DNA from: Cyanidioschyzon merolae
Taxonomy: Eukaryota
Assembly: GCA_000091205.1 (NCBI GenBank)
Contig: AP006496.2
Direction: 5' to 3' (one strand)
Length of the DNA: 64,000 nucleotides
Under the pieces are notes generated by a model. It was not told the origin of the DNA, made no database searches, and saw only the letters and a list, made by a program, of their open reading frames with translations. The translations under genes and the position numbers were made by a program. The stretch's first letter is position 1; every line of letters starts with the position of its first letter. Shown in pieces: positions 217 to 40,899 of this stretch.

Positions 217-780
217 AAGAAGATTCAACCACCGAAAATGTTTCGCGATCATGTGGAAAATTATTGCCCACCAGCAGGGGCGCCACAGTCTTTTTCGACC
301 GGCCTACTGCTATCGGCTTGAGCTTCTCCTGCCACACCACGGGCATTAGAGGGTGTCCCACAAAGCTGGATCGCGTCAGCTCCTCGGTTCTTCTTCAGCA
401 TCGCACATCGTCTGATATTGGTGGCGACGCGAAAGTCTCGGTTCACGATTTTCTCGCGTGCATGAACGCCGGTTGAGCTCATCAATGGAAGGATTCTTCG
501 AACTCGTGCCCTCTGTGACACTCCAGTCTCGTCATCGACCGTCGGGGAAACAAATTTACTCGCCTATCATTAATCCTCTTCTTTTTCTTCGTCGTGTGCT
601 CTTCTTCGCTCGATGGTTGGCGAGAAGAGGATTCTTTGATTCTTTCCCGGACACGTCGAAGAGGGTCCTCCAGGATCCCAAAATCCCATGTCCGTGCCTT
701 GCTCTTCGATTTTTATCTTTGAAAATCGACGCATTTCGAACGCATCTGCTATGAATAGCGTAAAAGCATTTGATTCCGCT
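217..780 (+). repeat. Left long TIR of element 1 (family copy A). Homologous to copies at 26063-26660 (+), 40286-40899 (-), and more weakly to 17200-17480 and 23990-24410.
   Basis: Direct sequence alignment to the other copies. Shared blocks include gtctttttcgaccggcc, aagtctcggttcacga and agaggattctttt. Confidence 0.6.
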
Positions 781-959
781 CCGATGCAGTGCGGAGCAGG
801 CGATCGACATCACGATGCCATGTACCGTGTAGATCGTAGACGAGTTGAATGCAGGGTATGTGTTTGGTACGGAGCAGAGCAAGGAGGAGTGCATTCGTCT
901 TTCAGGTCAGTCATTTCACAGGATTCAGATGGTTGCGGAGCACTGAAAGATAGAGGTCC

Positions 960-1664
960 ATGCGCTCTGTGCCTAAAATCGATATCCCCAATGCGCGTCT
1001 ACTGCCAATGGTAGAAAGCGACCCAATGATCACCTCACGGGAAGCAAAAGCGACGATGGTAGACGCCACGGGCGTCTCTGGTTCTCAACAGGATGCGCAT
1101 GCGGTCCTGGAAACGCTGGGATACACCCGCAAGAAACGAGTCCAGGTTCACGCACCGCTGTTTTCCACCGATATTGCCCCAAGAGCGTTCCTGGCACGTC
1201 GCGATCGGTATGAAGCACCGGGATGTCGGTTTGTTTTTCCAGTCGGTGAGACTTGCTTCGGACGAAACGATCCGAACATAAAAGCGTCTTCGCGGAGCGG
1301 CGCGCCCGTTATATGTATGATCGAACTCGAAGAGAACGACGACGTCATCGTCTTGTCTAGATGCAGTGGACTCGCGTTTGGCGGCCTCAGATTCGCAAGC
1401 AGAGAAGGCTCATACAAGAGTATGAACCACTTTGTCGAATCATTGAAGACTTTTCTTCTGACGCCTGGCGACGTCGTTCTATTCGACAACGTGTTCGTTT
1501 ACCGTTCCCGTTGTGATCGAGCATTTGCCGATTCTATCGGGGTAGCTCTGCTCTTCATTCCTCCGTACGCTGCGTCGTTCAGCCTCATCGATGCAGTGTC
1601 TTGTATCGTGAAACGTAATCATCGCTTCGCTGAGCGAATCGCTGACGCGTCTAGAACATGTTGA
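960..1664 (+). CDS. Tc1/IS630-family transposase catalytic (DDE_3-like) domain, 234 aa, probably inactive.
   Basis: Motifs FVFPVGETCF (first acidic residue is G), VVLFDNVFVYRS (D present) and FIPPYAASFSLID (third acidic residue is D, mariner-like). The N-terminal HTH-like ORF 688-1014 is out of frame. A near-identical copy lies at 12928-13632 (-). Confidence 0.55.
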   Translation: MRSVPKIDIPNARLLPMVESDPMITSREAKATMVDATGVSGSQQDAHAVLETLGYTRKKRVQVHAPLFSTDIAPRAFLARRDRYEAPGCRFVFPVGETCFGRNDPNIKASSRSGAPVICMIELEENDDVIVLSRCSGLAFGGLRFASREGSYKSMNHFVESLKTFLLTPGDVVLFDNVFVYRSRCDRAFADSIGVALLFIPPYAASFSLIDAVSCIVKRNHRFAERIADASRTC

Positions 1665-2169
1665 CATCCGAGCGCATGTCGTGTTTCTCGTGCGAGTCGC
1701 TCCTGCTCTGGGGAGTTCCTTACCTAGGGGCATACAGAAATGTGTTCATTCCAAAAAATCTACGGGATGAGCTTGGGTGCACACTTGACAAGGTCGAAAT
1801 GGAGACAGGCCAGCGGAGCGCTTTGGCGATAGAGACGAATAGAGAGAGGAGAGAGCGCCAAATAGTGCAGAGAGCGCGAGTTCGAGGACTCCTTGCATTG
1901 ACGAGTTCAACCAGAGGCAATAAATGCATCGAGTTCGTGAACCGAGACTTGAACGCCGCCATCCATACCAGAAGATGTGCAGCGTTGAAGAAGGGACCTA
2001 GGCACGTGACGCGAGCCAGTTTCACGTGGCAGCATCTCAGGGTCGAAATGCACCACGAGGAGTTGAATGCGGGAGCAGGGAACCAGCTGAAAAAAAAACA
2101 CTGGAAGATGTCTGCGGGTGGGTACGTATATTTACCCTCCATCGTTGTAAAACGTTTTTTGTTTCATTG
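1640..2169 (-). repeat. Right long TIR of element 1 (family copy B1), inverted relative to 217-780.
   Basis: Its reverse complement aligns to 217-780, for example atggcggcgttcaagtctcggttcacgaactcgatgc against ggtggcgacgcgaaagtctcggttcacgattttctcgcg. Confidence 0.55.
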
Positions 2170-2647
2170 AACACTCCATAGCGACGCGCAGCTTCACATG
2201 CTATGCACGTGTTCATGCTTCGAGTAAACTGGGACACCTTGCATGCGTCCTAGCGCCCTGACGCGGATTACCCTGTTTCACTCATTGCTCTCGGATTCAA
2301 GAGATGCATGGCAAAGGTGGATCAAGCAATTTGTCCTCAAGCGACCATTGAAAACGTGTCCGCGAACAGCGTTCCAGCCGCCAGAGGTCGGTGAACTTTC
2401 ACAAAAACCGCGTGAGCACCGAATCTTCTCGGTAAAGACTGTGAAGCTGGTGCTCGCACAGGATAACGGTTCCAGAGCCATGCCGCTCGCGAGCGCAGCA
2501 CCTCGCTGAACGAAACTACATGCCTCCTGAGCTCTGGTTCCAGAGACTGGTGTGTTGACCCGCTTCCTCCAAAGGCTCAGAGAAACTGATCAAACATCCA
2601 CACACACACACACACCGGACCAGAGAGCCGCGGTCAAGTTGCGTTAC

Positions 2648-2956
2648 CTACGGTAGCTCACGCGACACGTCCGCCGCTCCTCGTTCGCGTACGGCCCTTG
2701 TCGTGGCCTCCACAACGTACGGAGGCGGCGGGTAGAGCTTGCTGATCGTGGTCTGTCTTCGCACCATTTCTAGGTCTTTTTGGGCCTTCTCGAGAAGCTG
2801 ATCGATTCGTTGGGGGTCCTGCAGGTTGCGGTTCTCTCGAAAGCCGGCTTGAACGCGGCGCTTGGCGTACGCACGAACGTTGGTGTCTGCGAAACCTTCA
2901 CACGCACGTAGAAGCGCTCGGTAGAGCTGCAAAACTTGGAAGCGTGTCTCCGGCAT
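2648..2956 (-). CDS. LYR-motif protein, LYRM4/ISD11-like (Fe-S cluster assembly accessory).
   Basis: VLQLYRALLRACEGFADTNVRAYAKRRVQAGFRENRNL...LEMVRRQ matches the ISD11 pattern VLDLYRAMLRESKHFPSKNRQYLLDKIRAEFRKNK...LEVIKRQ. Confidence 0.6.
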   Translation of the reverse strand: MPETRFQVLQLYRALLRACEGFADTNVRAYAKRRVQAGFRENRNLQDPQRIDQLLEKAQKDLEMVRRQTTISKLYPPPPYVVEATTRAVRERGAADVSRELP

Positions 2957-3207
2957 AGTAACGCAGTTGCAGAAATTGAGAAACCCCTTTCCAAACGACG
3001 GAACACGCGCCTGATAAGAAACGTCGTCGTTTCGCCTGGTGCAAGCGCAGAACCCTCAAACGCTGAACGCGCTCCCACGCGACCAGCTCCGCAAGAGTAG
3101 TGGACGCTGGCCGCAGCTGGATCACTCCTCGACGTAACGAAACAAGTAGGCAACTCGAACGGCTCACTCACAAGGAGGTACCTCCCTGAGGAACTTGTGC
3201 GGGCATC

Positions 3208-3350
3208 TTGAAAGTACCAATGAAGGGAAAAGTAGCCTTGGCTATATCGCTCGGGTTTGCCGCCGGCATCATCCTTTTCGTGCACGAGCGCCAACGCAGT
3301 CAGACAGCGCGGATGCGTGCGGGCATTATCCGTGAACTTCGTCTGGAGGC

Positions 3351-3393
<43 letters not shown>

Positions 3394-3426
3394 CACTCTG
3401 CCGTTGACTCAAATCCGAAGCACTAG
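3208..3426 (+). CDS. Possible small single-pass membrane protein ending in a polyQ tail (72 aa). Hypothetical.
   Basis: One predicted TM segment (VALAISLGFAAGIILFV). It is transcribed divergently from the LYRM4-like gene. It contains a (CAG)13 run. No confident homology. Confidence 0.25.
3352..3392 (+). repeat. (CAG)n microsatellite, ~13 units.
   Basis: Direct read: cagcagcag... Similar CAG/GCA/CTG runs occur at 18701-18732, 19951-19973, 21197-21256, 29888-29930, 46132-46166, 47863-47888 and 56436-56463 (CAC)n. Confidence 0.9.
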
Positions 3427-4165
3427 TCGAAACCCTGACGATAGCGGACTTGCATGCTCTGTTCTGAGGTATTCGTGATGGAATCGATGAGGAACCGTCA
3501 TGCATACCTGCTTCATGAGGTTTCCACGCCCTCAGAGCATGGTGATGATGACGACACCTAGACCGTGTCCGGCTATTCAGTGGCGCTGGTAGCGTCCAGA
3601 CTGAACTAAATAAATACGTCCAAAGTTGACAAGATCAATGCATTTATTTGCATCGGATGCAATCGTTGCGAACAAACCACCGATGGTGGGCATTCCATGA
3701 CGCTGTCGTACGCGCTGTGCACACGCACAGCAGCAGGTTATTCGCGCGGAGGTCCTTAACCTCGCCTAGAATCCGTGGTGCTTCCGCTGAGCCCTCGTGG
3801 ACGAAGAACGCGCCGATGCAGGTTCCGGATTCTAGTAGAAGAATCCCTCCCGTCAGAGCGCTCTTCGCACAGGCGCGTGTAGTCATCGCCGACCGCTCGC
3901 TACTGCGCGATGTCTCTCCATGGGTAGCACCCTTGCCCACGATACCGACACGCGCCCAACTCGAGGTTCGCGCACCAGGCCGCGATCATTGCGCTAGGCC
4001 GGGGCACACATCGCGCGCAAGCGCGATGCTATCTGGGATCATTTCGCACCGGAGGCCCGGACACGGCACGCATCGATACAGAGGACACGAATCTGTCACG
4101 GACGCGTTGCACTGCAAGGACACGTGTCGGACGCAGCGTGCGCCACGTGACAATCGATACACCGA

Positions 4166-5911
4166 GTGGCCGCAACGCGCGCGCCGCACGTTTGGGGACG
4201 CAAGTTCCGCAGTTCCGCCGCGCTGTCCGCCAAAGCTTGGCCGCCATCGATCGCGCTCCAGTACGCAGCGGCGTGCGTTTCGAGTCTCTGCCGTTGTGCA
4301 CGGCGCGTAAGAGCGTTTGGTGCTTCGGGCTGCGTACGAACGGTGTATGACTCAAGTTTGAGGCCAATGTTCAGCGTTCTCTCCAGGAACACGATGCACC
4401 TACCTGTTTTTGAAAATGCCCCAGGTGCTGGCCGGGCTCGTTTTCTGCGCAAGCGCCTGTACAAAGTGCGAAACGTTATTTGCACCCGTCGGTGGCCGCT
4501 ATGGCTTTGCTCGTTCCTGCTGATAGGTTTGGTATTTGTGCTGGCTCCTCGTGTCATTCGCTCGGGAGCGAGCCTATGGGAAGCCCCAAACCTGCTGCAC
4601 ACGACTGTTGGTTGCCCGTTTATGTTTCTCGAATCGAACTTGACGCTGACGCTGAATCAGAGTCTAAAGGCGCCAAACGTTTCCAAGACCATGTTCCTGG
4701 CCGCGATCGAGGTGCGTGAGCAGGATCAAGGATATATTGCCGGTATTTTTCGTGTTCGCCATCCGTTTGCGCCGCACCGTACTTACAATCCGAGCAAGGA
4801 CGATTGGGACATATCCATGGTGGCCAACTCGACGCTTGCAGCTGTGAATTTTACTGCTAATCGCCTGGACCAGATCCAGGGCGGCTCTGCGCGTCAGCTC
4901 AGGCTCGGTTCGGAGCAAATGCATGCTGTTTATTCATACGGGCCAGAGGATCCACGGATTATTCGCTGCGGCATGCGGACCTTGGCGCTTTTCCATCAGC
5001 CGGACATAAGGATGTTCGCACCAATGCACCAACGCTTCCAGTATATCTTGGATATTGAGCGCAATGAACTCTACTGGATCGATGAGCCGCGAGCGCTCAC
5101 GCATGCTGGGCGGGACTCACCTCTGGTTGACAAGAATTACGTTCCACTCTGCGTGAATGGGGACGATTTGTACATCGTCACGAGCTTTGAACCGCTGCGT
5201 GTGCTCGGGCCTTGCACATTGAGGAAAGATCAGGTCTTTGCGCAAGGAGTACACGCTATTGCACACAGGGCACACTGTCCCGAGGCATTCAACGCTTTCA
5301 ATTCGAGCAACACCTTCTTCAGAGATTCTCAAATATTTCGCGGCTCGACGCAGTTCGAAGAGATCATCCCGGGTCGTGCGTACGTGTCACTCGTCCACGC
5401 GCGTCGCTGTGGTATCTACGATCGATGCAGCTACCAGGCTGCAATTGCCGTGCTCGTTCATCTGAGCTCCAGAGAATGGAAAGCAGTTTATTATCCGTCG
5501 CTGCTGAAGCTCTATGTTCCAGGCGGGCGTGAGAAAGAGCGACCTCGCTCGGGACGCCGACGCGAACATCGCTGCTTATTAGAACAGAGTCGACATGCAC
5601 ATCAACCTTATCGGCTCCATGTGAACCTAGTAGAGAATCCCGTGTCCATTATTCGATTTGAGAAAGATGAAAGCGCGCTTGTCAGCCTGAATGTGAATGA
5701 TGAGGAAACGCTAATCGTGAGGGTACCCGAGCTGTATCGATACGCAAGCTCGCTCGCCAGATGCATCCTAGAGGAACGCGCCGAACCACTGCTTCCACGC
5801 ATCAGCACGCTGTGGAAATGCAGCAATGGCGCCGTCTATGCCACCCAGGAAAACGCTGTGAATTCTTGGCACAAAATAGATCCGAGCACGGTCGCTCGAT
5901 TTCAAGGCTAG
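4166..5911 (+). CDS. Hypothetical type-II membrane protein with a lumenal domain carrying several N-glycosylation sequons. The start may be the internal Met at 4367 or 4394.
   Basis: 581-aa uninterrupted ORF. N-proximal TM anchor WPLWLCSFLLIGLVFVLAPRVI. Sequons NLT, NQS, NVS, NST, NFT. No recognisable catalytic motif. Confidence 0.45.
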   Translation: MAATRAPHVWGRKFRSSAALSAKAWPPSIALQYAAACVSSLCRCARRVRAFGASGCVRTVYDSSLRPMFSVLSRNTMHLPVFENAPGAGRARFLRKRLYKVRNVICTRRWPLWLCSFLLIGLVFVLAPRVIRSGASLWEAPNLLHTTVGCPFMFLESNLTLTLNQSLKAPNVSKTMFLAAIEVREQDQGYIAGIFRVRHPFAPHRTYNPSKDDWDISMVANSTLAAVNFTANRLDQIQGGSARQLRLGSEQMHAVYSYGPEDPRIIRCGMRTLALFHQPDIRMFAPMHQRFQYILDIERNELYWIDEPRALTHAGRDSPLVDKNYVPLCVNGDDLYIVTSFEPLRVLGPCTLRKDQVFAQGVHAIAHRAHCPEAFNAFNSSNTFFRDSQIFRGSTQFEEIIPGRAYVSLVHARRCGIYDRCSYQAAIAVLVHLSSREWKAVYYPSLLKLYVPGGREKERPRSGRRREHRCLLEQSRHAHQPYRLHVNLVENPVSIIRFEKDESALVSLNVNDEETLIVRVPELYRYASSLARCILEERAEPLLPRISTLWKCSNGAVYATQENAVNSWHKIDPSTVARFQG

Positions 5912-6864
5912 ACCTGGCATCGACCGTAGTGATGTACACGCATCGAAAATCATCTTTGAGATGCTTCTGGAAGCTTTCACGCTTCCAGGGCGAAAGATTC
6001 CAGTCTGAGCACGTAGCGGTCACTCGGGAATTTCCCCGCACGCATCATGCATGCGATATGTTGCACGCATGCAGCCGAATCGGTGACGTGTCCTGGCGGA
6101 CTGGTAATGATAACGTGCGCGCTTCTGAGGCGAGTTTCGTAGAACACAAGCTTGGCGATTCTTCGACGAACATTTCCAACATGTACGGATTCGCTGACAC
6201 TGGCTGCTTGGCGAGCTGCAGCATAGCGTTCTGCACGCTTTCTCGTGTCCTGCCAGTGCATCGGTGGACGGCGGAACCGCACTGCAGCGCTCCCAGAGTG
6301 AGATACGCACTTGCCCCAGCTTCGATACCCTGATTGGGTGTATCGCTTGTTTGAGCGTGACAATGCTCGCGATTGAGCCTGATACGGCGGTTCTCCTTCT
6401 AGTCGCACACTTCAGGCTTTCGATCTGCACGCATGATCGGTAGAGCGGTGAAATGCTCCGGATATAAGTACCACGAACAGCAGTGCCATTAGCGCCCCAG
6501 CATTGTCTCTTACCGCATCAGAGCAGTGCTCCGGTGCCTGCAACCATTCGCTTTACATCACGAATAGAGGGATACGCGGACATCCATGCATCTCGTTTCG
6601 ACGAGCGCTTTCCTCCGAGGCACGCTTCAGAGTAATCCAAACGTCGTCGATTCGTTCGCTGGTCGAATATGGCTTGGTTGACGCGCACCCGCCCCGAGCT
6701 GACACGAACGACTTTTGACCCCGTCCCAGCGAGCGCATTGCCGTTTAGAGACTGTCGCAAGTTGACTAGGGCGAAGCGGTGTATCGGCCGCGTCACCGGC
6801 CACCACGGCAACGGCTGGCCTGGCGATAGCCGCTCGGCACCTGCTCCCGAGACTTCACTGGAGA

Positions 6865-8538
6865 TCAACTCGCAGCGGGAGCTGGATCATATGGAAACGA
6901 TCCGTACTCTGCATTCCAGCGCTCATAGGCACGAACTTCATCATCGCTGACGCTCCGCCGAACAACCGCTGCAGCCCGTTTAAAGTCGTCTTCGTGGATG
7001 GCTCGAACCTGCTCGACTGAGACGTTGGCGATATCAGCGCCGAGATCACGGACAGGACCAAGGGCTGCTTCTGCGCAGGCTGCATACACATCGCTTCCAG
7101 AGTAACCGTCCAGAAGGTCCACAATGCGCTCGAGTTCGGCTTCACCGAGCGCATGTTTCTGGTCGCGGAGTAGGCTCTGCAGCATGCCGCGTCGCGCTTG
7201 GCGATCCGGCAGCGGTATATAGAGTCGACGAGCCATGCGCCGACGCCATGCCTGGTCCAGCTCCTGAGGCCGATTGCTCGCTCCGATAACCAGGACTCGA
7301 TCATCGCGGTTGGTCGCTGCCCCGTCCATTTGCACCAGAAACTCCGTCTTGATACGACGTGAACTTTCCGCATCATTCTCGGAACGAGCGCTCAACATAG
7401 AATCCATCTCATCGATAAAAATGACGGAGGGTTGTAGAGCTCGCGCGACACCGAACAGCGCTCGCACCAGTTTTTCGCTTTCGCCTACCCATTTCGACAT
7501 GAGCGATGAGGCTGAAATGTTGAAGAAGCGAGCCCCAGAGAGCGAAGCAATCGCTCGACCGATCATCGTCTTGCCGGTGCCAGGTGGCCCGAAGAGCAAG
7601 ACGCCCCGTGGCGGACCCCGTATTCCTCGAAACAAGTCAGGGCGAACCATCGGCCAAACGACTGCTTCCATAACACAGCGTTTGGCATACTCTAGTCCAG
7701 CGATATCGTCCCAGTTGACGCCAGGCGACTGGTCGAGGATCTCTTGCATCACCGTCTCGACGAGGGCAGGCTCGACGTTCGGTACACTGGGCAGATTGGG
7801 GTCAGGTCGCTGGCCATCGGCAGCCGGTCCTTGTGATGACGGCTCTCGCGAACGCTTCGCACTCGGCGTCGGCTGGGCTGACTCCCCCAGCCTTCGCGGT
7901 ACGCTAAACCGACTGGGCGCCTTTTGGGCTGGCTGCTGCTCATCGAGCGCATTCCCGCTCGCGCTGCGGAACGCTGTTTTCTCGCTCGAGACTCGCTCAG
8001 GCGCAGTGCCCTTGGAGGCGACAGGTGCGTCTGTCGGGGTGCCAGCGTTGTCGCGGTGCCAGGTTCGCGCTCGCGTTTGGAGCGCTGCTGCAAACCCGTG
8101 TCGCAGTCTGGCGCTGGTGATCACCCCAGACTCTCCAGCACATCCATCGGTCCGGTCTTGCGTTGCCTCAACCGCGTTTGAAGGCAGCGAGAGCGCTTGC
8201 CATACACTGGCGTCGGACAGGAAAGCAACCAGCTCCGAGGTCGTCAGCACCTCAAGCCTCGTGCTCGATTCAGCGTCCGGCAATAGCGACCCGAGCAACG
8301 CCTCTACAAGACCAGTTGCGTGCCGAAGGACCGCTTGGCGACGTGCTCGTTCGCGTCTCGCAACTGCCCAGCAGGCGGCATCAGCGGGGAGGCGCTGAAG
8401 CGCCCAGCGCTCCAACTGCACGTGCTCTCCCTCAAGCTCCAGAAGCGCGCACTCCCAGACCTGTGGTTCGGTCACGGAGTCGGGTACGCTCTGCGGTTGC
8501 GATCGAGGCCAGGTTTCGCGCATGCGTCCTTGGTACAC
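6865..8538 (-). CDS. AAA ATPase of the meiotic clade (katanin p60 / fidgetin-like / spastin family).
   Basis: Walker A GPPGTGKT and Walker B IFIDEMD. The C-terminus YERWNAEYGSF matches katanin YEKWMVEFGSA. The long block VNWDDIAGLEYAKRCVMEAVVWPMVRPDLFRGIRGPPRGVLLFGPPGTGKTM is collinear with katanin p60. Confidence 0.85.
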   Translation of the reverse strand: MYQGRMRETWPRSQPQSVPDSVTEPQVWECALLELEGEHVQLERWALQRLPADAACWAVARRERARRQAVLRHATGLVEALLGSLLPDAESSTRLEVLTTSELVAFLSDASVWQALSLPSNAVEATQDRTDGCAGESGVITSARLRHGFAAALQTRARTWHRDNAGTPTDAPVASKGTAPERVSSEKTAFRSASGNALDEQQPAQKAPSRFSVPRRLGESAQPTPSAKRSREPSSQGPAADGQRPDPNLPSVPNVEPALVETVMQEILDQSPGVNWDDIAGLEYAKRCVMEAVVWPMVRPDLFRGIRGPPRGVLLFGPPGTGKTMIGRAIASLSGARFFNISASSLMSKWVGESEKLVRALFGVARALQPSVIFIDEMDSMLSARSENDAESSRRIKTEFLVQMDGAATNRDDRVLVIGASNRPQELDQAWRRRMARRLYIPLPDRQARRGMLQSLLRDQKHALGEAELERIVDLLDGYSGSDVYAACAEAALGPVRDLGADIANVSVEQVRAIHEDDFKRAAAVVRRSVSDDEVRAYERWNAEYGSFPYDPAPAAS

Positions 8539-11012
8539 GCCTCACCGGGGTGCTGCACCTGTCGCCCGCCAGGCCGCCCGGTGTCGAGCGCGACCGGGTT
8601 CGACGGTGTTTTCCGCGATCCAGTGTCTCGCAGTAGACAGTTCGAGAGAGACCAGTTCCGCACTCGGGTTTCAGGAGTGCAAGACCGCGGCACCAGCTGA
8701 CGGATCAGCCAGAAACCCGCCCAGCTATGGAGCGCGTCAAGCGTTCAGCGTTGCCTGCGGGCAGCTCCGAAGCGCGCGCTTCTTTGCGCGCGTACCGGGC
8801 GCGTTTCCCTTTCGGGCCGGGGCGGCGAACGTGCAAGGAATGTTTCGTAGACGAAGCTTGTTTTTTTCTTCTGAATGACAAGATACAGGTCATGAGAGAT
8901 CAACATAGACTATTGATTGCCTGCTTATGTTTCTGTATTTAGAATTTTTCCAGAGTTTTATGTAGATGTGCAGCCTCCAGGTTCAATGTGCAGCGATGAG
9001 GGCTCACGAGTCACGCATCGTTTCGGGAGACTTGGTCAGTGTTTCGGGGCTGGGCGGCGTCGCTCGACGCTTTTCCACTGGAATCCGTTCCGTCATTGTC
9101 ATCAAGATCATTCGCACCGCCCTTGAATAAGGCTTTTTGGAAGAACAGATACCACGATCTACTTCATTCGTACAAGCTGTCACGTATCGCAATCCCGTGC
9201 ATGGAGCACGCCCGAAGCACGCGTGCTTCACGTCCTTCATCTGTGTGCTCCAGGGAAACTCGTGGGTACAGCAGTTCGCGCCACTGGATTGATGAAAACG
9301 AAACCTCGACGTCCGTTCTTGACGACTTCATCTCCGTCGCGAGCGCATACTGAAAGCTCACTGAGCTCGTCACTTCAAAGAATTGGTTCTTGTCGAAAGG
9401 AAAATCCTCCTCTTTCTGTGGCTATCGACGAAATGGAACGTAACAGCAGCATCGTGTCTGTCACGGAATGTATGTCCCCAGAGGCTCTCGTCTCTTCTAG
9501 ATACATCAAAATGCGGCCTCAGCACGCACTTGAGCCATCGCAACGATCGCTTCCAGTAAAGGACAAATCACTGCGTTGAACGCCGGGTTCGCAGACCAGT
9601 AGAGGTGTCTCTAGCTCCTTTCGAGACTAGATTCTCCTTCCGCTACTTGTTTCATCATGAGTTGTATCGCGTTCCCCGTATCCTTCATCGATTAGAGCGG
9701 CACGCGGTGGCAGGTGCACCACACAGCGCGCACTTGTCGATGGGATCGCCCAGAAGACGCCTGTGATCACAGCGTACTGCACGGGCCGCGTAAACAGAGG
9801 AACGCTACGAGGAGCGTCCCCTGTACCCGTCATGAGCATGTAGAGCGTGCTGGAGGAAACATTCGCAGGCATCAAGGCGCGACTCGGATGGGACGCTGTA
9901 ACGTACACACGTGAACACCTGACTGTAGTCGACTGCAACCGCTGCGAAGGGCGCTGCCTGGCTGACTTCACACAAGATGAGCATGAATGGCAATCGAAGT
10001 GTAGATCGCAACTTTTGCAAGCGCATGCCGTGCGTGAACAGTGACTGGATGCGGCGAAATCGAGACTTTACCGCTACCAGCAGTATCCTCCGACTGCTGA
10101 TGTCAGAGCTGTAGGTTCAGAGGGGACCAGCGTATTGAAACCCTGAGATACGAGAAACAAGGGAGGCAATCACAGATACAGCTACCAAACGCTGGCGTCG
10201 GTCGCAGCGGGTAGAAATCAAAACTTTAGCGTGCACACCCGCGTTCGTTGACGCGTACCATTGCCTTCTAGCATGGGTACAGGTCATATGTGCGTCGATA
10301 CATTTCTTTTTCGGTACCAGATCTCGGCATTGAACCGCGTGGTACCGGGATCTGCAGGTGCTACCGGAGCATGAGGAGGAGGAAAATCCAATACACACCT
10401 GGATCGATTCAGATTCGCTTCTTCCTACGATGATGCCCAGCGCCCCATTTCTCGCAGGAACAGAAGCTGAATCTAGAGAACTTTTGAGTAGCAAGTTCCA
10501 CGATGGATTGTTATGTTATAGAATCTGTGAGCATGACCAAGGATTCCCCGCTCTACCATGAATGCTTGCGACGAGGACTCATGCACCACATTCTCGGTTG
10601 CTCTGCACAGAGACAGCACGTGTTGACGATACCTTGGCGAACGTCGGCTCGAAGATAGATTCGTTGCTGTTGGATATGGAGACGGGCACTCGTTCCTCGC
10701 CCGTGTGGAGCGTCTCGGACCGAAACGCACAAGTCGGCACACTGCCCAGCACTAGAGGCACCGCTGCGCCCCGCGAATCGCAGCAGCTGGACAAGTTCCA
10801 GGTAGCAGTCGCCGTGGAATGTTTGACTGGACCCGGTGCCTGCTCTAGTCAGGGCACCGTGAAGCAGCTGGGCCACTGCTGCAGCGAAACTCTGCGCGTC
10901 TTCAGACTGCGTCCGACGCTGGCGAGAACGACGCAGAGACCAGCCAAGACAGCGGTGGACGCGAGAGGGTCCCGTCTCGACGTGGCGCCTTCGGAAAAAG
11001 CAGCCCCTGGAC

Positions 11013-12002
11013 GTGATGCTTCAACCAGTGGAACGATATGAAAAGCAACGGGTTCTTGGGCAGGGTACCTACGGTGTGGTGTATCTGGCGATCGATCGCT
11101 GTACTGCGCAGCCTGTGGCACTCAAGAAAGTTCGCCTCGCGGACTACACAGCAGGTCTGTCGATGACAGCGTGGCGAGAGTTGCGCCTTCTACCAGAACT
11201 GGGTGGCCATCCGAACGTCATCGCGCTCCTGGACGTATTTAGCACCAAATCTTCGGAGCTGTACCTGGTCTACGAGTACTGCGAAACCGATCTGGAGCAT
11301 TTGATCACCGAGCGTAACCTCATGTTGAGTCAGGGCGACATCAAAAGCTGCCTCCGGCAGCTGCTGGAGGGCGTCGCGGCCTGCCACGAAAACTGGGTAT
11401 TGCACCGGGACCTCAAGCCGAGCAACGTACTGGTTACTACCGACGGGGTGCTGAAACTGGCTGATTTTGGACTCGCTCGCGTCTATGCTGAACCGGACCT
11501 CGGAACAGAGGGCGGGCGCCGAATGACCCATCAGGTGGTGACGCGATGGTACCGAGCACCAGAGTTGCTCTTCGGGGCGACCGCTTACGGGCCCGCGGTC
11601 GATATCTGGGCCGTTGGATGCATATTCGCGGAGCTCATGCGCCGTGTACCCTTTCTGCCTGGACAGAATGACCTTGACCAGCTGGGGAAGATCGCGGCAA
11701 CCTTGGGAGCGCCCACTCCGGACCAGTGGCCCGGAGTGGATGCCTTGCCCGCGTACCTTCCGTTCAAGTCGGTCCAGCGACAGCCGCTGGCGGACTTGTT
11801 TCGCGCAGCCCCGCCCTCAGCCATTGATCTGCTGTCGCGGATGCTTGCACTGAACCCCAACGAGCGTATTTCAGCGCGAGATGCGCTGGAACATGCATTC
11901 TTCCATACGGGTGCAGCGGAGAGCGACCCGCGCGAGCTTATGGTTCGATGGCGGAAAGCACAAGCCCATCGAAGAGCGGCGAAAACGGAGCGACACTCCT
12001 AG
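11013..12002 (+). CDS. Cyclin-dependent kinase 7-like (CDK-activating kinase catalytic subunit).
   Basis: GQGTYGVVY, HRDLKPSNVL, DFGLAR, and the T-loop block THQVVTRWYRAPELLFGATAYG with VDIWAVGCIFAELMRRVPFLPGQNDLDQL, collinear with human CDK7. Confidence 0.85.
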   Translation: MMLQPVERYEKQRVLGQGTYGVVYLAIDRCTAQPVALKKVRLADYTAGLSMTAWRELRLLPELGGHPNVIALLDVFSTKSSELYLVYEYCETDLEHLITERNLMLSQGDIKSCLRQLLEGVAACHENWVLHRDLKPSNVLVTTDGVLKLADFGLARVYAEPDLGTEGGRRMTHQVVTRWYRAPELLFGATAYGPAVDIWAVGCIFAELMRRVPFLPGQNDLDQLGKIAATLGAPTPDQWPGVDALPAYLPFKSVQRQPLADLFRAAPPSAIDLLSRMLALNPNERISARDALEHAFFHTGAAESDPRELMVRWRKAQAHRRAAKTERHS

Positions 12003-12430
12003 TAGAACACATACGATCCGGACAGCGGTTCGATCTTGCTGTGAACTGCACAACTTTGTCGCTCCGAGTCGCAGCATCGGTGCGATCATGCCTACCTGTT
12101 CGTGCATGATCGGCGGCATAGGCAGGAATTGTGGTCTGCCTCGTCGCTGTGGAAGCGTTCGGGTCTCCCGTTTCGATCCGACGGGCTCGCCCTGCGTACC
12201 ACAACGCACTGATGATGGATACCTTGGAACGCGCGTGTCCCTAACTTGCCAGTTAGGAATCATCGGGCAAGTTCTGGATGTCAGGGCGTACCCATTGTGT
12301 TGTCGAGAGCAATGGAAGAAAGCGCAAGCGTTCATCGACGAGGACGCGATGAACGCCGCTGCTTGTCTAGATTCCCTTGATCACGGGCGCATCCATACGA
12401 TGCAAGTTTGATTCTTGAACATTTCAGTGA

Positions 12431-13811
12431 AACCGAAATGTTTTACAACGATGGAGGGTAAATATACGTACCCACCCGCAGACATCTTCCAGTGTTTTTT
12501 TTCAGCTGGTTCCCTGCTCCCGCATTCAACTCCTCGTGGTGCATTTCGACCCTGAGATGCTGCCCCGTGAAACTGGCTCGCGTCACGTGCCTAGGTCCCT
12601 TCTTCAACGCTGCACATCTTCTGGTATGGATGGCGGCGTTCAAGTCTCGGTTCACGAACTCGATGCATTTATTGCCTCTGGTTGAACTCGTCAATGCAAG
12701 GAGTCCTCGAACTCGCGCTCTCTGCACTATTTGGCGCTCTCTCCTCTCTCTGTTCGTCTCTATCGCCAAAGCGCTCCGCTGGCCTGTCTCCATTTCGACC
12801 TTGTCAAGTGTGCACCCAAGCTCATCCCGTAGATTTTTTGGAATGAACACATTTCTGTATGCCCCTAGGTAAGGAATTCCCCAGAGCAGGAGCGACTCGC
12901 ACGAGAAACACGACATGCGCTCGGATGTCAACATGTTCTAAACGCGTCAGCGATTCGCTCAGCGAAGCGATGATTACGTTTCACGGTACAAGACACTGCA
13001 TCGATGAGGCTGAACGACGCAGCGTACGGAGGAATGAAGAGCAGAGCTACCGCGATAGAATCGGCAAATGCTCGATCACAACGGGAACGGTAAACGAACA
13101 CGTTGTCGAACAGAACGACGTCGCCAGGCGTCAGAAGAAAAGTCTTCAATGATTCGACAAAGTGGTTCATACTCTTGTATGAGCCTTCTCTGCTTGCGAA
13201 TCTGAGGCCGCCAAACGCGAGTCCACTGCATCTAGACAAGACGATGACGTCGTCGTTCTCTTCGAGTTCGATCATACATATAACGGGCGCGCCGCTCCGC
13301 GAAGACGCTTTTATGTTCGGATCGTTTCGTCCGAAGCAAGTCTCACCGACTGGAAAAACAAACCGACATCCCGGTGCTTCATACCGATCGCGACGTGCCA
13401 GGAACGCTCTTGGGGCAATATCGGTGGAAAACAGCGGTGCGTGAACCTGGACTCGTTTCTTGCGGGTGTATCCCAGCGTTTCCAGGACCGCATGCGCATC
13501 CTGTTGAGAACCAGAGACGCCCGTGGCGTCTACCATCGTCGCTTTTGCTTCCCGTGAGGTGATCATTGGGTCGCTTTCTACCATTGGCAGTAGACGCGCA
13601 TTGGGGATATCGATTTTAGGCACAGAGCGCATGGACCTCTATCTTTCAGTGTTCCGCAACCATCTGAATCCTGTGAAATGACTGACATGAAAGACGAATG
13701 CACTCCTCCTTGCTCTGTTCCGTACCAAACCCATACCCTGCATTCAACTCGTCTACGATCTACACGGTACATGACATCGTGATGTCGATCGCCTGCTCCG
13801 CACTGCATCGG
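12431..13811 (-). mobile_element. Second, truncated copy of the Tc1/IS630-like element (right TIR plus transposase region), inverted relative to copy 1 and ~98% identical.
   Basis: ORFs 12443-12934(-), 12928-13632(-) and part of 13578-14045(-) are near-identical to 1658-2170(+), 960-1664(+) and 688-1014(+). Its terminus is tcagtgaaaccg at 12430-12441. Homology stops at 13811, which corresponds to position 781 of copy 1; the left TIR is absent. Confidence 0.65.
12928..13632 (-). CDS. Tc1/IS630-family transposase DDE-like domain, copy 2 (234 aa, 3 substitutions versus copy 1).
   Basis: Protein identical to the 960-1664 ORF except SIAVALL, SCTVKRNH and ADAFRTC. Confidence 0.55.
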   Translation of the reverse strand: MRSVPKIDIPNARLLPMVESDPMITSREAKATMVDATGVSGSQQDAHAVLETLGYTRKKRVQVHAPLFSTDIAPRAFLARRDRYEAPGCRFVFPVGETCFGRNDPNIKASSRSGAPVICMIELEENDDVIVLSRCSGLAFGGLRFASREGSYKSMNHFVESLKTFLLTPGDVVLFDNVFVYRSRCDRAFADSIAVALLFIPPYAASFSLIDAVSCTVKRNHRFAERIADAFRTC

Positions 13812-14543
13812 CCCTGTGCAACAAAATTGAGTTGAAAGCCTGTCAAGGCACTCCGCGCAGCTCGTGATGCACGCATCAGGCCGGGACAGCGCATACATAC
13901 ATGCATGCATACATACATGCATGACACGAATATGCATGCATGCAACAAACATCACGATAAGGCGGTGAGCAATTCCATGCACTGGGGTAGCACGCTCTTT
14001 CTGCTGCAGAACACGTGTCCGCAAAAGATCTAGCACGATCCACACCGCTGTCTGTTGACTTGAATCGACAGCAGTTCAGCTTGCAGACAAGGATTTATCT
14101 TGTGCATCTTGTGAGGCCTGCGTGCAGGCGACCACTTACCATGGTCGCAACGAATCTCCAGCGAGGCGGTATTTGATCGAGCCGCTCCCGAGAATGCACC
14201 GGCCGGACGGTTGATTGAGTGCCCACAGGTTTCCGCTCAGAGAATCCAGTCGACGCGTTTCTGTTTCGGGAATCGTACAAACTAGTGCAAATCCTGGATG
14301 ACATGCCAACGCTCGCATTCGAACTGCTCTACATGCACAGCGCCCGCTCCATGAACGCTTGCCTCGTTGGCACCCCGCAACGTCTCTGGAGTTCTCCGCG
14401 TGCGCGTCCGCGCTGGCATTGATCATTCGACTGGGCGCGAAAGCGCCGTGCGCTGTCCAATCGTGCCAGCAATCTGCCTTCCAAAGCGTTACACCATTGA
14501 AAACAGATTCCGAGCACCGTGCATTCATGGTGACTTGTAGTTC

Positions 14544-18439: not shown

Positions 18440-18665
18440 TGCTCGCGAGAAACACCACCCCATGAGACCGGTGAACGCCTGTCCGAGGCTCACGCGGCAT
18501 ACTAGAAACACAGCGCTAGTTCGAAACAGCCTCCGTTGAGGTCTGGGACAGCTCACCATCCCATAAGACCGGTGAACGCCTGTCCGAGGCTCAAGCAGCA
18601 TACTAGAAACACAGCGCTAGTTCGAAACAGCCTCCGTTGAGGTCTGGAACAAGTCACCATAGGCC
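18440..18665 (+). repeat. Tandem duplication, 101-bp unit x ~2.2.
   Basis: ccggtgaacgcctgtccgaggctca at 18468 recurs at 18569 with ~95% identity across the unit. Confidence 0.8.
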
Positions 18666-25937: not shown

Positions 25938-26062
25938 GGTTACGCCCCAGTCCGCTCGGGTACGTCGACTGTTGAAGAAGGTTCACTGAGGCGCTCGCGT
26001 ATGCTGCGCGTTGTGTCAGAGTTCCCAGCTGCACTGGCGTACGGGGTGTTTGCCCAGACCGT

Positions 26063-26660
26063 CAGTGAAACAGCAAGGTTTCGCAGCTGTAGGGTAATTT
26101 AATACCCACTCGCAGACGCTTCTCAGTCTTTTTCGACCGGCCTACCGCTATTGGGTTCAGCTTCTGCTTGCACACGACGGGCACGACAGCGTGCGCCACA
26201 CAGTTGGACCGTGTGAGCTCCGCGGGGCTCGGCTTCGGCACTAGCCATCTTCTGATAATCATGGCGATGTTCAAGTCTCGGTTTACGAACTCCATGCGTT
26301 TCTTGAGGCTGGTTGATCTCACCAATGCATGTAGTCGTCTATTTCGCACCCTCTATGCCACTTCAGTCGCGTCAGCGTCCCGTCGGGTAAACACCTTTTC
26401 TCGCCTGTCTCTCCTCATCTTCGTGGTCACTAGCTCTTCTTCGCTTGATGGTCAGCGAGCAGAGGATTCTTTTTCGTTTTGTTTTGAGGCACCCGCTGAT
26501 CAGCGTCCCCCAGGATTCCCGACTTGCACATCGATACCTAGCCATCAAATTTTGGATTCCTTCAGATGAACGCACCTCGGGCGCGTCGTCTATAAACCGC
26601 GAAGAAGCATTTGAAGACATGCATCCACATATGAAATACCATTGAGGTGAAAGATGACAA
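26063..26660 (+). repeat. Solo TIR-like copy (C) of the transposon family. The terminus begins cagtgaaac.
   Basis: Aligns at ~75% to 217-780 throughout. Begins gtCAGTGAAACagc at 26061. Confidence 0.6.
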
Positions 26661-33999: not shown

Positions 34000-34215
34000 T
34001 CAACCTACTCTCGATGCGCTCAGTGTGTACACGACGAAAACATCACTGGCAATTTTACTGGGTGCTGTATTGTCGGGCTACTCTCGATGCGCTCAGTGTA
34101 CACGACTAGAACATTACTGGTAATTTTACTGGGTGCTGTATTGTCGGTCTACCCTCGATGCGCTCAGTGTACACGAATAGAATATTACTGGCAAGTTCAC
34201 TGGGCGCTTTGCCGA
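34000..34215 (+). repeat. Tandem repeat, ~65-79-bp unit x3 (ctctcgatgcgctcagtgtacacga...ttactgggtgctgtattgtcgg).
   Basis: Direct read; three consecutive copies with small indels. Confidence 0.8.
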
Positions 34216-37164: not shown

Positions 37165-37612
37165 GCGATATGGTACCGCTATGATCCAGGAAAGCGTGTA
37201 TCATGCTTTACCGGACCTCTTTTTTTCCATGATCCATTCTTGGTGTCGGCGATAATCCAGGAAAGCGTGTATCATGCTTTACCGGACCTCTTTTTTTCCA
37301 TGATCCATTCTTGGTGTCGGCGATAATCCAGGAAAGCGTGTATCATGCTTTACCGGACCTCTTTTTTTCCATGATCCATTCTTGGTGTCGGCGATAATCC
37401 GGGAAAGCGTGTATCATGCTTTACCGGACCTCTTTTTTTCCATGATCCATTCTTGGTGTCGGCGATAATCCAGGAAAGCGTGTATCATGCTTTACCGGAC
37501 CTCTTTTTTTCCATGATCCATTCTTGGTGTCGGCGATAATCCGGGAAAGCGTGTATCATGCTTTACCGGACCTCTTTTTTTCCATGATCCATTCTTGGTG
37601 TCGGCGACAATC
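37165..37612 (+). repeat. Minisatellite, 71-bp unit x ~6.3, near-identical copies.
   Basis: The unit ccaggaaagcgtgtatcatgctttaccggacctctttttttccatgatccattcttggtgtcggcgataat recurs at 37186, 37257, 37328, 37399, 37470 and 37541. Confidence 0.9.
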
Positions 37613-38279
37613 CGGTCATTTCGTATGCTCCACCGTACGCCGAGTCTGTTGTGAACGCCCGCAACAGCGCCTCTAGCGATACTCCAGACGCTGCATGGCG
37701 AACGAACGACTTTGCCGCTTGTCAGAGGGCTTCGGCTCATCGACTAGAACACCCCGTGGCTAGCGTGCACACCTGATTCATCGCATCGCTATCGATCCTG
37801 GGACGGAGAAATGTCATTGAAACTAAACATGGACTTGCCATCGCGAGACAGGGATCGCTTACCCCGTCAACTTGCCGTCTGTACGCACCGGAGTGGACGA
37901 GTTCCACTACGCTTCAATCCGCATTGCTTCTCGAGTCATGATGCGTCCATCGGATTGTCTGGATGCGAACCTACTGTGAGCGCTCGCTCACGCGCCCAGG
38001 CATTGCCACACGAAGGCGACAAATTGTTGTCGTAGCGCCATGCGGGTGTCACCGCTCGAATGCCTCCACTGATGCGCTGTCGCCGCAGCGGAGCGGCAGC
38101 CTGGCGGCACCAGTCGCTGATCAGCACCAAGTCAATGTCGTGGCTCGCGCGCTGCCAGGGCGCCCCAAGCAGTAGGTGCTCCACAGCTAGCGCCGAGCCC
38201 TGGTCGAATCGAACCCAACAACATAAAGTTTACACGGATAAAAATCCGAACTAGACCCGATGAAACTGTTACTCTACGA

Positions 38280-40112
38280 TTATGCGTTCAGAACGTTGCA
38301 AACAGACACTGCAGGAACCGGCCAGGCTTTCCGACGACTCTTGCGGACGCCCGAGAGACGCAACAAGCGAGTCTCGAAATTCAAGTTAGGATCGCATCCA
38401 TCCATAGCGAGGAGCGAAGCGTCGCCACCAGTACGCCGGTCGTCTGCTGCGTGTGCCGGGTTCGCGCCACAGCCGCCAGTCCAGGTGTCGCTGCCACTTG
38501 CACTCCGCCAAGGCCAATGAAACACACCGAACACGCTGCCTGGAGAGTATTGCGGGAGCCAGTTGCGCTCGGCGCTCGTGGAACCTGACTTGGTACAGCA
38601 GGATACCGAAAGCTCGTGCCCGTCACCTGCATCCCGCCCGCAACCCCTCGAACTGCTGCCTATCCACACTGTACCACCGGGCGTGCCACTAGTCCTGTCT
38701 TGGACGCGTTTCGATCCCCGGCCATTGGCGACGCGTTTGGCGAGAGACTTGATCGCGCGTCCCGTTGCCACTGAACGCGGTGGACGCATACGCCGACCTC
38801 TCGCCGAATGATGCTCCGTTGACTGAGATGTTGTGCCGCTATCCCGCATACCAGGTGCATCCTGAAACGCGCGCTCATACATCACTTGGTGCTGGACATT
38901 GCCAGGCTTCACGTGGCGCAGGCGACCCTCGCGCTTTGCCCGTGCACAAAACTCGCTGAGCGTCTCGCGGCGAAATGACGGATTCAGGTCGAAGCGTTTG
39001 CGCGAATCATCTGGCTGGGTCACCAGACAAAAAATGGAGCAAAACGCGTAATCCTTTTGAAGAGGGCGCCAGCACGTTCGACAGCGACTAGCGCTGCTCG
39101 ATGCCCCCTGCCACGAAGTTGGAACGTGGGCGGCGCCAGTGTCCGAGCCCGATCCACGAACTAGATACATGACTCGCTGCCCATTGTTCAAATAGCTCTG
39201 GACCTGACTCACGTCCATCTCTTTGCAGATGTCCTTGGCGAGCACCACGTCGTGATACATGTATCTACAAATGCCAATGTGTGGATGCGAGGCGTGTGGT
39301 GCATCACCGAATTCCAACTGGCGCTGTCGGTCGACGCAGAGCCGGCAGACCGCTTCGCAGCAGTGCAGACAAAACACGGTGCGCTCAATCCAGCGTTGGT
39401 TAACTTTCCGAGAATCGTGTCCCGCGCTCTTATGCACGCCGCAGATGCTGTAGAATGAGGTGCGGAAGAGCTTCGGCAGCCAATCGGCCATCGCAGCCAA
39501 TGGATCGCTACCGCCTTTCATGGGTGCCGAGTCCGTGTGCGTATAGCGACGGACGACGGAAGTCGGACCGCTGGTGAGCGCAACGCCCCGCTCGCCGCCC
39601 TCCGAGTCAGACGATATGGGCGTTGTTGGCAAGCGATCGTCTGCTGGCGCGCTGTGCGGCTGTGGTGCCGTCACACATAAAGTTCCATATTCGTTGATTC
39701 TCGAGTTCTCGCAACCCCCCCACAGCTTAGTGTATCCATCTGATGTCCATTCATTCAAGCTAGCTGTTTCCGAAGTGCTCGCGCAGTGCACGAGACTCTG
39801 TTCCGGCACTGCGGGAATGGTCGAGGTCTCGCAGGCGTCACGCACGCTGCTCACAACGCCAACGCCGAGAAAAGCGTCTCTGACGTGAAAAGCGTACGCT
39901 CCCCCAGGCCCGGAGGCCGAGCTGTTCAAACGCCCGGTCTGGGACGAGTCCATAGGGTCCAACGACACAACCCAGTATGCGAATGGACGTGTACACGGTT
40001 CAACTGCCGTGTAGTCGCTTAGAGAGAGCGTCTGTTCCATCCAAAATTTTGCCGCGCAGCAGAAATATCTACGATCGGGCAGATATGGCTGTCGGTGGCG
40101 TGCTGGCACCAT
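38280..40112 (-). CDS. PLATZ-domain zinc-binding protein. The start is probably downstream of 40112 (for example MEQTLSL).
   Basis: FCLHCCEAVCRLC...YHDVVLAKDICKEMDVSQVQSYLNNGQRVMYL...CRTCWRPLQKDYAFCSIFCLV follows the PLATZ pattern FC.DC....C..C...H..H..LQIRRSSYHDVV...IQK..DISGVQTY.IN...V.FL...C..C.R.L.D.FRFCSL.CK. Confidence 0.7.
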   Translation of the reverse strand: MVPARHRQPYLPDRRYFCCAAKFWMEQTLSLSDYTAVEPCTRPFAYWVVSLDPMDSSQTGRLNSSASGPGGAYAFHVRDAFLGVGVVSSVRDACETSTIPAVPEQSLVHCASTSETASLNEWTSDGYTKLWGGCENSRINEYGTLCVTAPQPHSAPADDRLPTTPISSDSEGGERGVALTSGPTSVVRRYTHTDSAPMKGGSDPLAAMADWLPKLFRTSFYSICGVHKSAGHDSRKVNQRWIERTVFCLHCCEAVCRLCVDRQRQLEFGDAPHASHPHIGICRYMYHDVVLAKDICKEMDVSQVQSYLNNGQRVMYLVRGSGSDTGAAHVPTSWQGASSSASRCRTCWRPLQKDYAFCSIFCLVTQPDDSRKRFDLNPSFRRETLSEFCARAKREGRLRHVKPGNVQHQVMYERAFQDAPGMRDSGTTSQSTEHHSARGRRMRPPRSVATGRAIKSLAKRVANGRGSKRVQDRTSGTPGGTVWIGSSSRGCGRDAGDGHELSVSCCTKSGSTSAERNWLPQYSPGSVFGVFHWPWRSASGSDTWTGGCGANPAHAADDRRTGGDASLLAMDGCDPNLNFETRLLRLSGVRKSRRKAWPVPAVSVCNVLNA

Positions 40113-40285
40113 TGAGCTGAAATGAACAAGTTTAGATCACTTTGATCCAAGTTGGGCTGCTGCTGAACGGACAGCGCACGGATAGCTGTCGGTGGTGTGC
40201 TGGCACCTTTGATCTTAAATGAACAATTTATATCACTTTGATCCAAGTTGCGCCGCTGCTGAACGGATGGCGCACGGAAGGCGTT
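40087..40285 (+). repeat. Tandem duplication, ~97-bp unit x2, directly abutting TIR fragment D and the PLATZ 5' region.
   Basis: gctgtcggtgg.gtgctggcacc.ttga.ct.aaatgaacaa.ttta.atcactttgatccaagttg.gc.gctgctgaacgga occurs twice. Confidence 0.8.
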
Positions 40286-40899
40286 GCGCTATGCGGGTAC
40301 CTCTCTGTGGTGCAGCATTTCCAATGGCATGCCATTGGGTACTTTTTCGCGGTCAAAAGCAGAAGCGTTCAAAGTGCGATCACTTGGTGATATAAAAAGA
40401 CCAATAGAAAGGTATGGACATGGAAGACGGGCATCCTTGAGGGCCTGGTGCCGCCGGATTCCAGAAAAAAAAAACGAGAAAAAGAGTCCTCGTCTCGCTG
40501 CCCATCGATTGTAGAAGAGCACGTGTCGAAGAAGAAGAAGAAGAGCGGTGATAGGCGAGACAAGGTGTTTGCCTGACGGGACAATGACGAGACTATTATG
40601 GCACAATGAGTGCGCGTTCGAAAAATCATCGTACTGATGAGTTCAACCGGATGCAATAAACGCATCTAGTTCGAGAACCGAGAACGGAACACCGCCATGA
40701 ATATCAGACGCTGTGTAGCGCTGAAGTCTAGACCCAGGGAGCTGACACCAGCCAACTTTGTGGGGCAGCCTCTCAGGCTATAAGTGTTCAACGAGAAACT
40801 GAGACCGATAGCAGGCGGCCGGTCAAAAAAGATTGGCAGACGCCTGTGAATAGGTACATATTTACCCTCCATGGTCGTGAAACGATGTTCGTTTTGCTG
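40286..40899 (-). repeat. Solo TIR-like copy (D) of the transposon family, minus orientation.
   Basis: The reverse complement aligns to 217-780 (for example agtctcgtcat.g.cccgtc.gg.aaaca...ctcgcctatca). The outer terminus is cagcaaaac. Confidence 0.6.

Follow-up and report, generated by a model that had tools for sequence, protein, structure and literature searches.

Positions 217 to 2169 of a 64,000-nucleotide stretch of nuclear DNA from Cyanidioschyzon merolae 10D (contig AP006496.2, GenBank assembly GCA_000091205.1; the whole stretch is hereafter called the window) contain a decayed transposase gene bracketed by inverted sequences, which raises the question of whether this block is a single transposon or an assembly of older pieces. 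The first-pass annotation described it as a structurally complete Tc1/IS630-like transposon with long terminal inverted repeats (TIRs) that could be mobilised in trans. The analysis described here makes it likely that 217–2169 is not one transposon but two adjacent, head-to-head, dead derivatives of one two-gene transposon family, in which an IS630-like transposase was followed by Fanzor1, a TnpB-like RNA-guided nuclease.

C. merolae has been reported to contain eight transposase-related class II relics, which most resemble bacterial transposases, and 3.2-kb repeats that occupy ~5% of the genome (PMC1955436); the transposase relics described here are probably among these eight. The Fanzor1 repeat CMe-1A was described from ~150 copies in this species that are ~80% identical to a 3,169-bp consensus, lack TIRs, and are of unknown class, some of them keeping an intact Fanzor (PMC3627910). 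We used the CMe-1A consensus DNA and the 734-aa CMe-1 protein from the supplementary files of that paper (PMC3627910). The sequence searched comprised the 64-kb window and ~0.3 Mb of related metagenome contigs; the complete C. merolae genome is 16.5 Mb. From the metagenomes, the scan recovered orthologues of two loci in the window, A and B, and the paralogue lineages L004/5, L006-8, and L009-11/14/15, each with 68–70% DNA identity and all full of stops and frameshifts.

Both arms are remnants of Fanzor1

An inverted repeat is indeed present, though shorter and weaker than the first-pass annotation stated. Positions 390–515 and 1868–1993 are 74% complementary over 126 nt without gaps, blastn pairs 363–515 with 2022–1868 at 74.2% over 159 nt (E 2e-19), and a gapped alignment reaches ~330 columns. 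However, the arms are not ~560-bp repeats; they share a ~410-nt Fanzor 3′ module with 55% identity over 401 aligned positions, and nothing on the right side corresponds to the left arm's inner ~230 nt. The left arm is 68–71% identical to two short elements elsewhere in the window (copies C and D) and to L009. For the right arm, the best match is the CMe-1A consensus (67%).

The arm translation contains EFVNRDLNAAI, which is reminiscent of the C-terminal RuvC motif of TnpB/Fanzor. Using tblastn and nhmmer, we located a Fanzor1 C-terminus remnant, equivalent to CMe-1 residues 612 to ~730, in the right arm at 1766–2170 (+ strand). With the CMe-1 protein as the query, tblastn aligned 1769–2095 (54% over 110 aa, E 6.5e-26) and copy B, a close relative of the right-hand sequence described below (E 9e-28); residues 612–730 also matched copies C and D. 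The right-arm remnant spans ELGCTL to NRDLNAA (~120 codons, with NRDLNAA at 1940–1960), RuvC-I, RuvC-II, and most of the protein having been deleted so that the Fanzor1 motif set D...[TS][TS]xx-zinc finger-...RD is no longer complete, and its TGA stop (2168–2170) lies inside the element terminus ...GTTTCATTGA. Pfam gave no domain match for the arm open reading frames (ORFs) or the Fanzor remnant, and the Fanzor homology is visible only against the published CMe-1 protein. At the DNA level, the family profile matched CMe-1A 2737–3092 (nhmmer, E 1.2e-68), and both arms showed 72–75% blastn identity to the CMe-1A consensus over 171–236 nt. The final ~70 nt of the 3′ end differ from this consensus, which points to a sister subfamily of CMe-1A. 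As judged by these alignments, both arms are 3′ coding ends of the Fanzor1 family CMe-1, and they belong to two different subfamilies.

End-to-end alignment with copies C and D identified the left-hand element, relic 1, at 224–778 (− strand) as a CMe-1 family member of ~555 bp that was reduced by internal deletion to Fanzor sequence only. Its outer (3′) end is at 224 and its inner (5′) end at ~775–780, and it consists of the Fanzor 5′ untranslated region (UTR) and ~50 first codons joined to ~110 last codons and the 3′ terminus. The 3′-module profile detected the left arm at 635–228 (nhmmer, E 6e-110), copy C (E 5.5e-112), and copy D (E 5.1e-115). A frameshifted Fanzor1 C-terminus remnant, corresponding to CMe-1 residues 640–722, was found by tblastn at 287–530 (− strand) as two high-scoring segment pairs in different frames (50–53% identity, E 2e-12), with the RuvC-III-like motif NRDFRVA at 443–423. 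Copies C (26062–26630, − strand) and D (40325–40899, + strand) are solo, short, Fanzor-only deletion derivatives that match the left arm over ~555 bp. In blastn comparisons with the CMe-1A consensus, the left arm aligned with positions 2840–3010, to which the orthologous contig L012 adds 832–937; copies C and D and the L012 left arm also matched CMe-1A 827–969, which is the Fanzor 5′ UTR and first codons. Since the left arm, C, and D thus carry both this segment and the 3′ end, we regard them as internally deleted Fanzor-only elements of ~555 bp.

Other sequences of this kind lie in the vicinity. The TE-N2_CMe-like fragments at 40948–41464 and 37542–37738 resemble the 5′ part of CMe-1A (~48–557 and 60–252, respectively) with 67–72% identity, and the former begins only ~50 bp past the 3′ end of short element D. 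L009 has a TE-N2-like copy ~200 bp upstream of its transposase unit; such repeats appear to be clustered. In addition, L012 3213–4371, which corresponds to a location ~5–6 kb upstream of window position 1, is a distant Fanzor1-like coding region with 22–29% identity to CMe-1 residues 125–544, and it represents a second, divergent Fanzor lineage near the locus.

The right-hand element is a repeat unit without a left arm

Self-comparison of the window showed that the right-hand element, relic 2, is copy A of a 1.39-kb repeat unit at 781–2171 (+ strand). It contains, in order, the transposase pseudogene, a spacer, the Fanzor ATG, a deletion of codons 2–611, the last ~120 codons, and the 3′ terminus. 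The second copy in the window, copy B, was delimited by blastn and the family profile at 12423–13850 (− strand), where it is flanked by genes for a protein kinase and a large GTPase-like protein and has the complete family 5′ end. Its segment 12423–13811 is 98.7% identical to 781–2171 and to nothing further to the left. The same boundary was found in metagenome contig L001 from a related strain, where the match starts exactly at 781, and the paralogue lineages, which begin at or near this position (~743 to 781), agree with one another in their 5′ and 3′ limits. No inverted arm was detected 5′ of the unit in copy B or in any paralogue lineage across the window and related contigs. The family 5′ end lies ~38 nt upstream of the equivalent of 781, the family 3′ end is ...GTTTCACTGA, and the 3′ terminus is common to the unit and the short elements. 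Because the two relics share the 3′ module and face away from each other, the pair mimics a long terminal inverted repeat.

Copy A is without the first ~38 nt that are present in B and the paralogues, and the family profile starts at model position 27 in A and at position 3 in B. Simple insertion of the short element into the unit should have left these nucleotides beyond the left arm, but we found no convincing match at 186–223. A remnant of the unit's 5′ region beside C and D would have favoured an ancestor with two arms; no such remnant was detected there with the family profile.

The termini were compared between copies. The outer ends of copy B (12423) and copy C (26062) read TCAGTGAAAC, so that the CAGTG-type ends reported by the first-pass annotation are present in these copies (family 3′ end ...CACTGA); in the 217–2169 copy, however, both termini are degenerate, the left one being TCAACCACC and the right one TCAATGAAAC. 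At the 3′ junctions, ...CTGA precedes an A, C, or T, and the 5′ junctions have the form (T/G/C)A|(C/T)AG. No TIR was found between the unit's own ends in B, L004, L007, and L009, where alignment scores were at the mean of shuffled controls. A by-eye candidate TIR, in which the 5′ end TACAGTC..TCAA..CA.TTT.G was compared with the family 3′ end and with the TIR of intact relatives, was rejected, almost all comparisons being at chance in shuffle tests. The copies are old, and no dinucleotide at their flanks matches on both sides as a TA target-site duplication would.

In both A and B, the Fanzor 5′ UTR runs to an ATG that is joined directly to codon 612. Read from this junction, codons 2–611 were evidently lost by a deletion at ATG microhomology. 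The two copies are identical over 959–1480 (= 13633–13112), the central 520 bp, and their differences cluster at the ends of the unit; L001, which carries the A orthologue of another strain, has nine sites within 959–1480 at which it departs from both A and B. This pattern suggests gene conversion between the inverted copies, that is, concerted evolution. Loci A and B are both present in other strains.

In the metagenome contig L002 (Ga0080006_1155376), the unit has the 5′ flank of copy B on one side and the 3′ flank of copy A on the other: L002 1–11212 corresponds to window 23598–12423 and L002 9822–20699 to window 781–11656, with ~9.5 kb in inverted order. L002 may represent an inversion of the intervening 10 kb, mediated by the inverted units A and B and polymorphic in natural populations; an assembly chimera formed through the repeat would look alike.

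The transposase pseudogene belongs to the IS630-Tc1-mariner superfamily

Profiles, relatives, and a consensus together define a pseudogene of an IS630/Tc1-mariner-type DD34E transposase at 820–1664 (+ strand). Its ancestral ATG is at 820 (MYRVDRRRV), matching the N-terminus of intact relatives, and its lesions are a frameshift at ~860–880 and an in-frame TGA at 951–953, after which a 234-codon remainder is open (960–1664). The triad in copies A and B is G-D-D, with G (GGT) at 1245–1247, D at 1485–1487, and D in place of E at 1590–1592. The first-pass annotation was right that the first catalytic acidic position reads G, and this position is D in the family consensus and the intact relatives; with the G-D-D triad, the frameshift, and the TGA, its statement that the copy is non-autonomous also holds. 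Its assignment of a helix-turn-helix (HTH) N-terminus to ORF 688–1014 was partly correct. The codons of this ORF from ATG 820 are transposase, but 688–780 (93 nt) belongs to the neighbouring element, and the HTH helix (VSHFTGFRWL) shares the frame of the main ORF, from which the TGA at 951–953 separates it.

The window ORF alone gave sub-threshold profile matches (DDE_3, 20.2 bits where 28.6 are required; IS630, E 1e-4). We therefore rely on a consensus taken as the majority of four lineages and projected on the reading frame of the window, which restores VDETCF, LLDNV, and PPYAPWFNPIEG (NPIEG) in a DD34E arrangement. This consensus was above the cut-off for DDE_3 (55.2 bits, E 9e-15) and matched the IS630 model (NF033545) with 84.4 bits (E 9e-24) over profile positions 14–278 of 299; HTH_Tnp_Tc3_2 and HTH_33 gave weak signals. 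It was 35–40% identical to intact ~300-aa transposases of the IS630 family (E down to 6e-60). The decayed IS630/Tc1 transposase with conserved motif order proposed initially is thus borne out, although by the consensus and not by the window ORF, and the family is predicted to have encoded an IS630-Tc1-mariner superfamily transposase with a DDE_3 domain. The Cyanidioschyzon-like contigs and protein clusters searched yielded no intact transposase of this family, and mobilisation in trans is unsupported.

Intact relatives point to a probable two-gene ancestor

A word-indexed protein search returned a single near-identical metagenome ORF, whereas a full HMMER scan reached intact relatives. This exhaustive scan yielded 166 transposase relatives, mostly fragments, of which several are intact (~300 aa) and pass the IS630 family cut-off. 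A separate scan of viral contigs for the intact relative gave no match. One relative, P0172, occurs at five independent loci (L016–L020) in a ~2.99-kb element composed of the transposase gene, 61 nt, and a gene for a 592-aa Fanzor1, the latter being 32% identical to the CMe-1 Fanzor1 (E 1e-89). These elements have imperfect TIRs of ~30–40 bp, and TA is present at both junctions in L017–L020. The contig of another relative, P0170, has the same transposase-then-Fanzor1 order.

The L016–L020 copies, from NCBI GCA_031546785.1 and related assemblies, JGI 3300008116, and ENA ERZ27247984, are >99.8% identical at at least five insertion sites in host DNA of 37% G+C, and the element is apparently active. 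It could supply an intact pair of Fanzor1 and transposase related to the C. merolae family.

Traces of the same arrangement persist in Cyanidioschyzon. In the window, the transposase stop at 1664 is followed by the Fanzor 5′ UTR/ATG remnant and then by the Fanzor C-terminus from 1766. L009 and L007 retain ~50 Fanzor N-terminal codons directly after the transposase, indicating that the two-gene order was once present in Cyanidioschyzon. Together, the intact two-gene relatives and the remnant order in A/B, L009, and L007 argue for descent from a transposon that combined an IS630-like transposase with Fanzor1. No intact Fanzor was found in the window or beside any Cyanidioschyzon transposase copy in the loci examined.

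The ancestor would have had the order 5′ end, DD34E transposase, short spacer, Fanzor1, and 3′ end, and it may have moved by cut-and-paste with its own transposase and short TIRs, as the intact relatives appear to do. By analogy with TnpB, Fanzor1 and a guide RNA from the 3′ module may have helped the element to persist. Relic 1 would then have kept only the Fanzor 5′ UTR, ~50 N-terminal and ~110 C-terminal codons, and the 3′ terminus, whereas relic 2 would have lost Fanzor codons 2–611 and retained a transposase gene that has since decayed to a pseudogene. The 98.7% twin located 10 kb away probably arose by duplication at the DNA level and/or gene conversion and not by recent mobilisation in trans. 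Both relics are presumably inert today, given that the Cyanidioschyzon-like sequence has no intact transposase and the window no intact Fanzor.

Alternative explanations

Several observations weigh against two dead derivatives of a two-gene transposon or leave this account incomplete. Positions 769–780 are ambiguous, which blurs both the 5′ limit of relic 1 and the route by which copy A lost its first ~38 nt. The unit is known from two copies and the ~0.3 Mb of related contigs, and a two-armed copy or an intact transposase could exist elsewhere. The account also leaves the multiplication of the TIR-less Fanzor-only copies unexplained. Finally, the guide RNA in the proposed history finds no support here: RNAalifold on eight diverged copies gave −12 kcal/mol (covariation term, −0.05), folding z-scores of the 3′ module ranged from −2.1 to +1.8 and were mostly ~0, and Rfam contained no match to the module. 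A conserved RNA fold was unconvincing by RNAalifold, by single-sequence z-scores, and by Rfam alike.

The alternative that survives best, though we consider it unlikely, takes the 3′ modules to be functional omega RNA genes, the copies persisting and spreading without a transposase through RNA-guided cutting and homing by intact Fanzor1 proteins encoded elsewhere in the genome. Every derivative, including the unit, the 555-bp elements, and CMe-1A, keeps the same ~410-nt module up to a sharply defined end, and two small hairpins recur (CCGGTC-N6-GACTGG and GGGTA-N-TACCC). The guide RNA of Fanzor is placed at the 3′ end of the gene and extends into the flanking DNA (PMC13565253), and the ~150 TIR-less CMe-1A copies include some with an intact Fanzor (PMC3627910). 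Yet a conserved fold has no covariation, thermodynamic, or Rfam signal behind it, the window holds no intact Fanzor, and conservation of the module could equally reflect a cis-acting sequence bound by the transposase or recent common descent. Slightly more doubtful still is the proposition that Fanzor1-guided cutting followed by homology-directed copying, without any transposase, is what multiplies the TIR-less Fanzor-only elements, the 3′ module serving as a working guide-RNA gene. If it were true, the IS630-like transposase relics would be fossils of the original vehicle, and C. merolae would offer a natural case of a eukaryotic RNA-guided nuclease element that went on spreading after its transposase had been lost.

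The structure proposed at the outset, a single non-autonomous Tc1/IS630-like transposon at 217–2169 with ~560-bp TIRs that an intact family member could mobilise in trans, now seems highly improbable. An inverted repeat does bracket the transposase relic, and the family's outer ends TCAGTGAAAC recall the CAGTG termini of Tc1. However, copy B and the paralogue lineages are without the left arm; the arms are Fanzor coding modules from different subfamilies, only 55% identical; the TIRs of intact relatives measure ~30–40 bp; an intact family transposase was not found in the sequence searched; and the flanks show no visible TA duplication. It is equally improbable that the pair became an accidental composite, a 1.95-kb block with two right ends that a transposase binding both outward-facing 3′ termini could move like a miniature inverted-repeat transposable element, for although this geometry fits, no second composite copy was found in the window or related contigs, the left outer terminus is degenerate (TCAACCACC in place of TCAGTGAAAC), and the lineage has no known active transposase. 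Two adjacent relics of one two-gene family remain by far our preferred explanation for the locus.

Other features of the window

The window is nuclear DNA with 57% G+C and several minisatellites. Downstream of relic 2, a gene for a LYR-motif protein lies at 2648–2956 (− strand), its ORF being identical to an annotated C. merolae 10D protein, and an adenylate kinase ORF in the window is likewise an exact match, as a cluster member, to an annotated protein of this strain. Minisatellite-like tandem arrays occupy 44862–45696, 37178–37615, 56113–56394, 18453–18660, 34005–34208, and 40085–40278, with periods of ~93, 71, 97, 101, 73, and 97 bp, respectively; their identity is 89–99%, and some may overlap coding sequence.

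Comparison with known systems

True long-TIR Tc1-like elements, such as those of the IR/DR type, have non-coding arms that are found in all copies and evolve in concert within each of them. The locus resembles them superficially, with inverted arms of several hundred base pairs around a Tc1-like transposase and CAGTG-like ends, but its arms derive from Fanzor coding sequence, resemble each other no more closely than random family members do, and are missing from all the other copies. Two facing relics here imitate a long-TIR transposon, and the structural call for this locus is corrected. With the bacterial IS630 family (NF033545), the consensus shares DD34E, yet its 84 bits fall short of the 100-bit equivalog cut-off; unlike bacterial IS630, the family has a eukaryotic host and a Fanzor1 partner, and its window copies have no detectable TIR or TA duplication.

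CMe-1A (TE-N2_CMe), which corresponds to the 3.2-kb repeats of PMC1955436 and whose segments ~2737–3092 and ~827–969 have homologues in both arms and in copies C and D, was described without TIRs or transposase and with unknown class (PMC3627910), whereas in the unit an IS630-like pseudogene lies directly upstream of the Fanzor start. This ties the unclassified, TIR-less CMe-1 Fanzor1 repeats, ~5% of a transposon-poor genome, to a two-gene ancestor of IS630/Tc1-mariner type. The classification of the CMe-1 family is of modest value in itself and is useful for the study of Fanzor evolution and for the annotation of C. merolae.

The architecture of transposase plus Fanzor1 has been documented before, in oomycetes and giant viruses (PMC3627910) as well as in green algae (Chlamydomonas). 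The Mariner/Tc1-type Fanzor1 elements PUl-1, PUl-2, and PGv-1 carry an IS630-Tc1-mariner DDE transposase and then Fanzor1 on the same strand (PMC3627910), and the L016–L020 elements, with short TIRs and TA at the junctions, are like this type. The PUl-1 transposase is 25% identical to the Cyanidioschyzon consensus (E 1e-6), which indicates a different transposase clade, and unlike elements of the PUl-1 type, the window copies no longer have an intact catalytic triad, detectable TIRs, or more than a small part of Fanzor. In the Fanzor families A–C of an endogenous giant virus of Chlamydomonas reinhardtii, full-length elements combine an IS630-Tc1-mariner transposase with Fanzor1, and the derivatives cover the same range as those described here, from Fanzor-only copies with the right end to gutted non-autonomous ones (bioRxiv 10.1101/2024.09.03.611062). 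The Chlamydomonas copies are >99% identical and expressed, whereas those of Cyanidioschyzon are ~30% diverged and decayed and showed no link to a virus in a scan of viral contigs.

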